IMG/VR virus record: IMGVR_UViG_3300033463_000039
Location: 53,994-117,993 of that record
From: a virus
Taxonomy: Duplodnaviria; Caudoviricetes
Direction: 5' to 3' (one strand)
DNA length: 64,000 nt
A program made the position numbers and the translations under genes. Below, in pieces: positions 24,996-52,466 of this stretch. Below the pieces are notes generated by a model that saw nothing but the letters and a program-made list of their open reading frames with translations, had not been told where the DNA came from and searched no databases. Every line of letters begins with the position of its first letter. The stretch's first letter is position 1.

Positions 24996-26753
24996 CTAGT
25001 TTAAAAATAAAAATTGTGAAATATCTCTTTTCTTTCTTTTTTTCTTTCTATCTTCATCTTGTTTTATATAATATAATCCATATTCAAAAGCAGAAAATTT
25101 ATCTTTAGGAATCCCGCGGCTAGATTGTTTTAAAATAATATTTGCACCTTCATTTTCTTCTACTAAATTTAACATTTGAGTTTTTAAAATTGTAGTTAAT
25201 GTAAAAGGTTTTAAATATTCCGCTCTTTTATCTCCAGACATAGTTTGACCTACTTTTGTAGACATTAATTTTACTTTCGCCTGAGTTTCATCTATTAAAA
25301 ATTTAATTTTTCCATTTAATAATTGAGTTTGAACATAACTATGAGCTTCTGTATTTATAGGTAAATTTGCTTTTATTAAATACATAGCATTACTTTCTAC
25401 TCCTGGTCCATTAACTTTTTTATATTGTTCTGTTATATCTTCATTAGTTCCACCTTCAACACCAAAAGGAGCAAGATCATCTCCTGACTCAGGATCAACT
25501 TGCGCTTTAGTCATAAAGTCAACTAAACCAATACCTAAACCATTAGCATCAATTACAACAGAACGAGCTTTATATTTATAAAATAATCTTTTAATATGAA
25601 TTGCTTGCTGTTCAAAATCTTCAGCTTCATAACTATATAAATTTACTAATGTTTTTAATGCGGCGCCTTGTAATTGTGGAGTTACTTTAAAAACACAAAC
25701 TTCTGTAGTACATTTTAAACGACCAACGTCAACTCCTAATACATAATAAGCAGTTTTATTTGAGCGGCCGCTATATTCATACTCTGGTTGTAATAAAACT
25801 CTGTATTTATCAAACTTTTCCGCAGAGAAGAATGCGTTTTCTGCATCTCCACTTCATTCTGATTCATATTCTCTTGCAAATGAATTGTCATTATAAGTTC
25901 CATCTAGTTTTAATTCTTCTATAAAAGATTTTTTTAATAGTTTTTCCATGACTGGAACGCGCCAAGATCCTCCTAGAACGACTGCTTCCGCAGGATCAAT
26001 TATTTCTTGAATTAAAATTTGAATTAATTTATCATAAGCAGAACTATTTTTTCAACCTGCGGTAGTAACATAAACTTGACTTTTATTAGTAACTTCTTCT
26101 TCAACTCTTGAACCATCAGATAATCTTCTATCAACGTTCATAGTAGGAATAATAACTTCATTTAAAATAGTTTGATCTATCAAAATACACTCTTCCATTA
26201 AACCACCAGTTGCTCTCTTACCACGAGTACTTTGCTGAGCAGCCATAACATCAAGTTTACTACCATTTTTAAATTTATATTCAACCATATTCTTAGAAGA
26301 CTTTGTTGCGCCTCTAGTCCAGTCTATTTCATTCTTAATTCCAGGTATTAATTTACAAATTTCATCTGCTTTATCCTTTAAAATGCCTGCCGCTTGTTCT
26401 TTTCCTCCAGTAGTAACAAATAAATGTGAATTAGGATATAAAATACATCTTAACATCAATACTAAAACTGATAAAAAAGATTTTGAATAACCTCTAGGAA
26501 AAGTTGCATAAGCATATCTATGACGCATCGCCGCACGCAAAAATAATCTTTGATAAAAAAATAAACTAAAATTTTCTTTATTTTCGGGTCCGCATAAAAA
26601 TTCAACAAATATATCAGGATATTCTCTCCAAAAAGCAATTTGTTTTCTTAAATTAGACATTTGTTGTTTTATACGGTCTTCAGATATCCCAACTTTTTTA
26701 GCTTCTTGATTTTCTACATGTTGCAAAATATCATTAAGAGCCATTTTTACCAT
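24996..26753 (-). CDS. Terminase large subunit (code 4)
   Basis: Walker A FPRGYSKS, Walker B-like GGLMEE, VTTAG-W(TGA)-K, FAREYESE-W, nuclease LGVDVGR, VIDANGLG, KDKFSA; 26052-26753 in frame with 24996-25514. Confidence 0.9.
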
Positions 26754-47880: not shown

Positions 47881-48116
47881 ATATATAATGGCATTTATTA
47901 AATAATATTATGACTTAGGTCAAGTAGATTTTCTCCGTGAATGTACACTTCCGTTACCAGAAATGCGCTTTCGCTTTAAAATTCAGATATGCGGTTGCCC
48001 TACATATGACTTGATTACCACTTAGTTCATACCTTAAATTTAATAAATATCGGCCTAGAAGTTTTCCTTACAATAATTTGTTATTAACTAGGATACCGTG
48101 CCATTAAAAATAATAA

Positions 48117-52063: not shown

Positions 52064-52137
52064 TGGCACCGAAGGCTTGATTCAAACAAACATAACTAGT
52101 TTTGGAGACTAGGGTCCTATCATTAGACGACTTCGGT
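52064..52137 (-). tRNA. tRNA-Trp(CCA), degenerate D and T loops
   Basis: Stem CTAGT/ACTAG, loop CTCCAAA, G73, CCA; T loop TTTGAAT, D loop lacks GG. Confidence 0.75.
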
Positions 52138-52148
52138 ATATAAAAATA

Positions 52149-52244
52149 TGGCACGGGACCAAGGACTTGAACCCTGACCCGAGGTTTTGGAGACCCCGCT
52201 TTACGGTTTTGAAGACCGCTGTGCTACCATTACACTAGTCCCGT
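52149..52244 (-). tRNA. tRNA-Trp(TCA) opal decoder with a second anticodon-like arm (CCA) in the variable region
   Basis: ACGGGAC TA GTGT AATGGTA GCAC A GCGGT-CTTCAAA-ACCGT AAAG CGGGGT-CTCCAAA-ACCTCG GGT CAGGG-TTCAAGT-CCTTG GTCCCGT G CCA. Confidence 0.85.
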
Positions 52245-52466
52245 ATCAATGTTTGTATAAGTTAAGTTTTTTTTTGCTTAACTTTATATATTTATTATAA
52301 TAAAAAATTTATATAAAATCAATATAAAAAAAATTAGGTTATTATTTATAAAAAACAATAACCTAACACATCGATAGAAAGAAGGCATAGCAATAGTCAA
52401 AATGACTATCACTAATATTATATAAATTTTAATACATATTAATTAATCTATTTTGCTTAATTTATA

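Follow-up and report, generated by a model that had tools for sequence, protein, structure and literature searches.

A phage opal suppressor tRNA with a second, tryptophan-type anticodon arm as a candidate identity element for the host synthetase

Introduction

Wherever genetic code 4 is in use (Mycoplasma, Spiroplasma, mitochondria), a tryptophan-accepting tRNA(UCA) reads both UGA and UGG, and its gene often adjoins that of a tRNA-Trp(CCA). Such code-4 tRNAs belong to class I, with a variable loop of 4–5 nt and a cellular TrpRS that has co-evolved with them, whereas the phage tRNA(UCA) described here has a 26-nt hairpin displaying CCA in that position and faces the synthetase of a standard-code host. 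An anticodon-arm mimic bound by a synthetase outside tRNA is found in the E. coli thrS operator. A similar likeness exists in yeast, where HisRS recognises an anticodon-like hairpin in an mRNA that is not a decoding anticodon (PMC6542539). Both of these mimics are regulatory mRNA elements, whereas in the present case the mimic would lie inside a working tRNA and serve aminoacylation.

Long variable arms act as synthetase identity elements in the class II tRNAs (Ser, Leu, bacterial Tyr), as is proposed here for a tRNA of another kind. In class II tRNAs and in allo-tRNAs it is the length and orientation of the arm that matter, the loops being short and unconserved, whereas the loop considered here is a conserved 7-nt copy of an anticodon loop; allo-tRNAs also have an 8/4 or 9/3 acceptor/T branch, against 7/5 in the present tRNA (PMC5389517). 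In the suppressors derived from E. coli tRNA-Trp, i.e. the opal suppressor (UCA) and the amber suppressor su7, which is charged by GlnRS, the change of anticodon alters or weakens recognition by the synthetase (PMC9976931), and this is the problem that a decoy anticodon would solve. They are, however, point mutants obtained in the laboratory from a class I tRNA, and carry no compensating element.

The TGA-to-Trp gut phages of Borges et al. (10.1101/2021.08.26.457843), as presented in the accessible portions of that paper, resemble the present phage in having a tRNA(UCA), a low GC content, late genes in which in-frame TGA stands for tryptophan, and no TrpRS of their own, so that charging by a host enzyme is presumed; how phage suppressor tRNAs are charged is stated there as an open question. 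The same portions list the tRNAs without describing their structure, unlike the analysis reported here. Full-text literature searches returned no description of a second anticodon-like arm in a tRNA, and none is mentioned in the accessible portions of 10.1101/2021.08.26.457843, PMC12636597, PMC12386605 or PMC5389517.

Structure of the tRNA(UCA) gene

The window, i.e. the whole stretch of DNA that was analysed, makes up the right-hand 64 kb of an IMG/VR virus record of 117,993 bp and about 28% GC, and encodes a portal protein, the large terminase, a virion protein and topoisomerase II subunits. The whole record has 8 tRNA genes, all of them inside the window, and one of these has the anticodon UCA. 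Its parts and its immediate surroundings are as follows.

52149–52244, minus strand: whole tRNA(UCA) gene, 96 nt with encoded CCA, five-arm cloverleaf (ARAGORN; Rfam RF00005, 55.8 bits; minimum free energy fold)
52238–52244, minus strand: 5′ strand of the acceptor stem (nt 1–7, ACGGGAC), pairing with 52153–52159 (A1-U72, G3-C70, G4-C69, G5-C68)
52221–52235, minus strand: D arm GUGU-AAUGGUA-GCAC, Trp-like, with 4-bp stem and 7-nt loop (sequence, fold, alignment)
52203–52219, minus strand: arm 1, the decoding anticodon arm GCGGU-CUUCAAA-ACCGU (UCA at 52212–52210)
52199–52202, minus strand: linker AAAG between arms 1 and 2 (fold)
52180–52198, minus strand: arm 2, the putative decoy anticodon arm CGGGGU-CUCCAAA-ACCUCG (CCA at 52190–52188)
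52160–52179, minus strand: GGU junction and T arm (CAGGG-UUCAAGU-CCUUG, 5-bp stem; sequence, fold, alignment)
52149–52152, minus strand: discriminator G73 and encoded CCA end (sequence)
52064–52137, minus strand: ordinary class I tRNA-Trp(CCA), 11 nt downstream of the tRNA(UCA) (ARAGORN, Rfam)
52294–52322, minus strand: promoter-like site TTGATT-17-TATAAT, about 50 nt upstream of the tRNA(UCA) (consensus match only)

Arm 1 begins one base (A26) after the D stem, like a normal anticodon arm. The variable region between the anticodon and T stems measures 26 nt and forms a 6-bp hairpin instead of the 4–5-nt loop of class I tRNAs, and the minimum free energy fold of the 96-nt molecule is the five-arm cloverleaf. 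The minus strand was re-read, and together with ARAGORN, Rfam and the fold it agrees to the base with the initial annotation, which had described a tRNA-Trp cloverleaf with two complete anticodon arms, UCA and CCA. The pairing of a tRNA(UCA) gene with a tRNA-Trp(CCA) gene is also seen in one relative (L002).

ARAGORN reports a 96-nt tRNA with anticodon tca and the label ‘SeC’, which is due to the UCA anticodon alone. Together with a long variable arm and G73, the signature recognised by SerRS (PMC5389517), this label would fit a serine-accepting class II tRNA or a tRNA-Sec, in which case UGA would be read as serine or selenocysteine by way of SerRS. The anatomy speaks against both, as the tRNA has a 7/5 branch and a 4-bp D stem with a 7-nt loop, compared to an 8/5 branch and a 6-bp D stem with a tetraloop in tRNA-Sec (selC, RF01852), and the general Rfam tRNA model, at 55.8 bits, scores above the tRNA-Sec model.

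In the present lineage the two arms have GGUCU.CAAAACC in common, and an origin of arm 2 by tandem duplication of an arm is plausible, if not demonstrable. The double arm is not a product of assembly. A Logan contig of the probable source run (316 nt) covers both arms with no mismatch, and contigs from two other bovine-gut studies (1320 and 1674 nt) cover them with 1 and 2 mismatches, respectively. The UCA and CCA triplets are 22 nt apart and fall inside one 31-mer, and a chimera of two alleles, a caution raised in the initial annotation, is therefore ruled out by contigs from three studies. In bovine-gut runs, contig depth over the D arm and UCA arm (window 52184–52237) reaches 630–760 against about 12 on the flanks; this peak corresponds to a conserved 39-mer common to many co-occurring phage strains. 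One run bears the label metatranscriptomic but is probably DNA. A blastn search with the tRNA pair against 50,697 GenBank phage records gave no match.

Meaning of TGA in the phage

Long reading frames appear in the record only with readthrough of TGA, one of them extending over 2790 codons with 20 TGAs, and the long open reading frames of the 118-kb record contain 213 TGA against 169 TGG codons. With one tRNA(UCA) in the record, this tRNA would be the sole dedicated decoder of some 200 codons, including those of structural genes. An example of such a client gene is that of the large terminase (TerL).

24996–26753, minus strand: large terminase gene, with TGA at W234 and W300 (homologue alignment)

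Both positions are tryptophan in all 120 closest homologues, and in relatives with the same type of tRNA they are encoded by TGG in one phage and by TGA in another. On this comparative evidence TGA is tryptophan in the present phage. Its position at invariant Trp columns and its interchange with TGG bear out the initial annotation, in which the tRNA was taken as an opal decoder of the tryptophan type, here in a phage recoded at TGA. The same two observations weigh against serine or selenocysteine; about 213 in-frame TGAs without any SECIS logic are incompatible with selenocysteine, and 13 of 13 phage tRNA(UCA) inserted tryptophan in an E. coli extract, a set that, from the accessible portions of the report (PMC12636597), may or may not include the extra arm. 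A serine or selenocysteine identity of the tRNA is highly improbable. The concern about SerRS expressed in the initial annotation was a real one as regards the long variable arm and G73, but it is contradicted by the position of TGA at Trp columns.

No release factor gene was found in the record. The frame of the topoisomerase II large subunit (57835–59529, plus strand) contains TGA only at its last three ‘Trp’ codons (556, 558, 563), in a tail that is poorly protein-like. This gene probably ends at the first TGA, which suggests that TGA may still be a stop in early genes.

The record probably derives from a bovine gut metagenome, and the TGA-recoded cattle ‘Agate’ lineage of about 127 kb, which fits in size, habitat and code, is the likely candidate clade. 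The tRNA cluster also includes an OLE-like RNA (window 47892–48096, minus strand; Rfam RF01071), covering mostly the 3′ half of the model, with counterparts in four relatives (L030, 5210–5602; L034, 5822–6158; L037, 11595–11987; L058, 5077–5348). Scores for the phage and these relatives are 85–124 bits, against a gathering score of 50, and L037 has in addition a ROOL RNA (152 bits). OLE RNAs are known from anaerobic Firmicutes, so that a copy in a phage is unexpected and hints at the phylum of the host. With the B. subtilis-like acceptor stem of the tRNA also considered, a Firmicute is the probable host. The tmRNA model matches 100 nt of the phage (window 46524–46623, minus strand; 54.3 bits), from model position 1 to 374, and the match resembles a tRNA-like domain that lacks the tag-coding segment; in relatives L003, L027, L034 and L037 the tmRNA is of full length, about 400 nt.

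Conservation of the second arm among phage tRNA(UCA)

IMG/VR was scanned for a UCA arm (GGTCTTCAAAACC) followed by 18–40 free bases and a T arm, with no constraint on the variable region. The scan yielded 77 loci which, with the window, represent 63–64 distinct tRNAs; the boundaries given by ARAGORN, with a tail rule, served to assign the 7/5 and 8/5 classes. The anticodon stem was set to GGUCU..AAACC in every scan, and the sample consists of lineages with this stem and not of those with others.

The motif UCCA lies in the variable hairpin of 41 of the 42 distinct 7/5, G73 tRNA(UCA) with a long variable region on viral contigs, compared to 0 of 21 tRNA-Sec of the 8/5 type and 1 of 50 Ser, Leu and Tyr tRNAs of the same loci. 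The one exception (L048, 2931–2988 region) is a Trp-like 7/5 tRNA(UCA) whose 28-nt variable region has neither UCCA nor a clean hairpin. The statement in the initial annotation that no natural tRNA of this kind was known to have been described agrees with our literature searches, but the structure itself is common and not unique.

Within arm 2, the loop is conserved and the stem varies. U33, C34, C35 and A36 are present in 40/40 sequences, A37 in 38/40 and A38 in 35/40; the loop is exactly 7 nt long in 33/40, closed by 4–7 bp, and has 6, 8 or 9 nt in the other 7. The 5′ linker before arm 2 ranges from 0 to 7 nt across the family, with many of 0–2 nt. In an alignment of 29 sequences, the stem of arm 2 is free in sequence yet paired, with double compensatory changes in 3 of its 4 inner pairs and 93% of cells paired. 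The structure as a whole, with five helices, is 98% paired, a value reached by none of 500 shuffles, and the acceptor helix is 100% paired with all 7 pairs covarying. G73 is found in 40/40 aligned members; the pair 2-71, C-G in the present tRNA, is G-C in most relatives.

At least two scaffolds carry the motif; the first has a Trp-like D arm, the second a Sec-like 6-bp D stem and tetraloop. Opal tRNAs on the second scaffold (L008, L013, L014, L020, L039, L045, L050, L051 and L065; 7/5, G73) carry GUCCAAA or UUCCAAC as their variable-arm loop. The recurrence of the decoy loop on a second scaffold points, as far as sequences can tell, to convergence or to a very old divergence. Class I tRNA(UCA) with the same anticodon arm form a minority (18 loci, about 10 of them Trp-like) and have no decoy. 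A looser scan of genome contigs gave, among the 120 matches listed, at least 116 genuine 8/5 tRNA-Sec with UCCA inside the variable stem and at least 4 double-arm tRNAs, the latter on short contigs of low GC content from MAG bins (Coriobacteriia, Oscillospiraceae, Treponema), which is no reliable host assignment.

These data bear on whether arm 2 has any function. Arm 2 as a neutral relic of a duplication would account for the sequence common to both arms in the present phage, and class I relatives with the same D arm do exist. A relic would hardly keep its loop invariant while its stem covaries, in some 40 sequences and on several scaffolds, and more than 200 TGA codons have the tRNA in question as their only decoder; nor is an artefact compatible with contigs of three studies spanning both arms, or with an architecture that recurs in about 40 distinct sequences of independent metagenomes with compensatory changes in arm 2. 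The probability of a relic or artefact is negligible, and we consider a neutral relic essentially excluded, together with the suggestion in the initial annotation that arm 2 might be a fossil of the suppressor's origin, a suggestion at odds with a loop so strictly conserved and a helix that covaries on diverse scaffolds. Switching of register between the arms, another of its suggestions, is rejected, since the family does not conserve strand-swapped pairing (3.3 and 2.9 of 5 pairs, compared to 4.9 and 4.7 for the arms themselves). For collapse to either allele by recombination, which it had also envisaged, no evidence was found, the existence of class I relatives with the same D arm notwithstanding.

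Amber relatives and a natural exchange of the second arm

An amber scan built like the opal scan, again with the variable region unconstrained, gave 61 distinct phage tRNA(CUA), each having 17 nt or more in its variable region. In 53 of them the variable region contains UYUG, i.e. the glutamine anticodon, and in two more it contains C-YUG; among 40 opal tRNAs, UYUG is found in none. The hairpin of these amber tRNAs (L226–L349, e.g. L235, L269 and L257) shows CUCUGA or CUUUGA. In ten amber phages with TerL 58–62% identical to that of the present phage, 33 of 51 in-frame TAGs align with glutamine of the present phage, most of them at invariant Q columns, and none with tryptophan; the Trp columns are TGG.

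One relative, G070 (L350, IMGVR_UViG_3300028805_000058; 146 kb, 93% complete), combines an amber anticodon with a tryptophan-type second arm. Its TerL is 69% identical to that of the present phage. It has no tRNA(UCA), and its single tRNA(CUA) (G070:C1:10262-10354) has a Trp scaffold and a GUCCAAA second arm and adjoins a tRNA-Trp(CCA) gene. Of 19 in-frame TAGs in G070, 14 align with TGA (9) or TGG (5) of the present phage and none with glutamine, and they include the invariant TerL positions W145 and W234. From these alignments G070 appears to read TAG as tryptophan. TGA was also considered as a sense codon in G070 and rejected, as the TGA/TGA alignments between the present phage (G000) and G070, under a TAA-only stop, are antisense shadows of conserved genes. 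A scan for further tRNAs combining CUA with a CCA decoy returned only that of G070, one odd tRNA-like sequence (L368) and chance matches.

To our knowledge, TAG as tryptophan is known only from the plastids of Balanophora (NCBI table 32). No report of it in phages was found in the literature, and it is absent from the phage codes reported in the accessible portions of Borges et al. (10.1101/2021.08.26.457843).

The TAG alignments thus indicate that one and the same decoding anticodon, CUA, goes with glutamine where the second arm shows YUG and with tryptophan where CCA takes its place. The decoy is not the only difference between these tRNAs, as their bodies have a Gln-like acceptor stem in the one case and a Trp-like one in the other, and comparison alone cannot separate the contribution of the decoy from that of the body.

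This correspondence between second triplet and amino acid helps to weigh two further readings of arm 2. The first is dual decoding, with either arm offered to the ribosome, UCA reading UGA and CCA reading UGG. Each arm does have a natural junction (A26 before arm 1, and a ‘variable loop’ of 3–4 nt, GGU, after arm 2), and most arm-2 loops are canonical, with 7 nt, U33 and A37. The irregular loops in 7 of 40 members and the many linkers of 0–2 nt fit such a role poorly, and an ordinary tRNA-Trp(CCA) gene lies next door. A U34 anticodon moreover already reads UGG by wobble. Finally, G070 and the amber tRNAs have the same design, yet there the sense codon of the second triplet is unrelated by wobble to the stop codon. 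Dual decoding is thus improbable.

The second reading holds that arm 2 is bound by some reader of the tRNA-Trp anticodon loop other than TrpRS. Candidates are the T-box leader of the host trpS gene or trp operon (specifier UGG), binding of which would raise the supply of Trp-charging capacity, a host anticodon nuclease or defence factor that the decoy would titrate, or a modification enzyme. T-boxes are common in Firmicutes, to which the host probably belongs, judging from the OLE-like RNA in the tRNA cluster and the B. subtilis-like acceptor stem, and since the conserved feature is precisely a mimic of the anticodon loop, it could be bound by any reader of that loop. The amber suppressors, on the other hand, have a version with the Gln triplet, and the decoy triplet tracks the encoded amino acid; such a match is predicted by a role in charging and not obviously by a T-box or nuclease decoy, and the acceptor determinants for tryptophan are also kept. 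Another reader of the loop is therefore an unlikely explanation.

Identity elements and a model for charging by host TrpRS

Class I tRNA-Trp(UCA) function in code-4 bacteria, and the change from C34 to U is of only moderate cost for E. coli TrpRS. Considering also the 18 phage loci with class I tRNA(UCA) and no decoy, the decoy would not be strictly required for charging. The elements of bacterial tryptophan identity are G73, C34-C35-A36 and A1-U72, with G2–G5 pairs in addition in B. subtilis (PMC9976931). The acceptor end of the present tRNA(UCA) keeps the determinants G73, A1-U72, G3-C70, G4-C69 and G5-C68. The triplet C34-C35-A36 is absent from the decoding arm (U34-C35-A36), and CCA is found in arm 2 only.

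A gene of the TrpRS/TyrRS family (PF00579) was found in none of the 52 records with a double-arm tRNA, including the present one, of which 12 are at least 90% complete; among the 18 records that have a class I tRNA(UCA), 3 contain such a gene. This contrast (P about 0.015 over all records; 0/12 compared to 2/7 near-complete genomes, P about 0.12) involves records that are not independent, and a link between the absence of a TrpRS gene and the double-arm tRNA is suggestive only. The class I tRNA(UCA) found together with an own TrpRS-family gene of 330 aa are L081/L102 (G008), L084/L101 (G011) and L080/L103 (G007), and two of the tRNAs of such phages have A73 and not G73. These three phages may be of the ‘code change module’ type of Jade phages.

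We propose that, in this Trp-type suppressor tRNA, each of the two functions of an anticodon falls to a hairpin of its own. Arm 1 (UCA), in the normal position of an anticodon arm, would read UGA on the ribosome, while arm 2, in the position of a variable arm, would display a 7-nt copy of the tRNA-Trp anticodon loop (N-U-CCA-A-A). Along with G73 and A1-U72, arm 2 would restore to host TrpRS the C34-C35-A36 element that was lost from the decoding arm. The case for it is the match between decoy triplet and amino acid in three combinations of anticodon and decoy, the retention of the acceptor determinants for tryptophan, and the fact that no TrpRS gene was found in the phages. That arm 2 supplies the anticodon identity element for host TrpRS is, on this comparative evidence, the explanation we regard as likely. 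Of the four ideas on the extra arm put forward in the initial annotation, this is the one favoured by comparison of sequences.

We infer a contact of TrpRS with arm 2, which might be made in either of two ways. The enzyme might reach the side arm on the variable-loop face of the tRNA, the face approached by class Ic synthetases. TyrRS approaches tRNA from the variable-loop side and grips the long variable arm (PMC1934993), and as TyrRS is a paralogue of TrpRS, an element in the variable arm would face the class Ic enzyme, provided that TrpRS approaches from the same side, as we infer by analogy. A side arm of 5–6 bp in a class II-like position would, however, miss the anticodon site of the synthetase unless the junction rearranges. 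Alternatively, arm 2 might transiently take the stacked position of the anticodon arm during charging, which is conceivable given the normal A26 before arm 1 and the normal-length GGU ‘variable loop’ after arm 2.

Extended to the amber relatives, the proposal becomes a general one, namely that suppressor tRNAs of recoded phages part decoding (arm 1) from identity, given by a decoy that is CCA for tryptophan and YUG for glutamine. Once identity is freed from the decoding anticodon, any stop codon could be assigned to either amino acid. On balance, we lean towards this being a general trick in such phages.

Implications

If suppressor tRNAs of recoded phages carry their own copy of the cognate anticodon loop, this would account for their charging by a host synthetase that reads the anticodon. 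Such an anticodon mimic, being part of the tRNA itself, would represent an identity element of a new kind and would provide a natural blueprint for genetic-code expansion, in which the codon read is uncoupled from the amino acid loaded. In the phages themselves, it would explain quick switches of the code (TGA to Trp, TAG to Gln and, apparently, TAG to Trp) without a dedicated synthetase.
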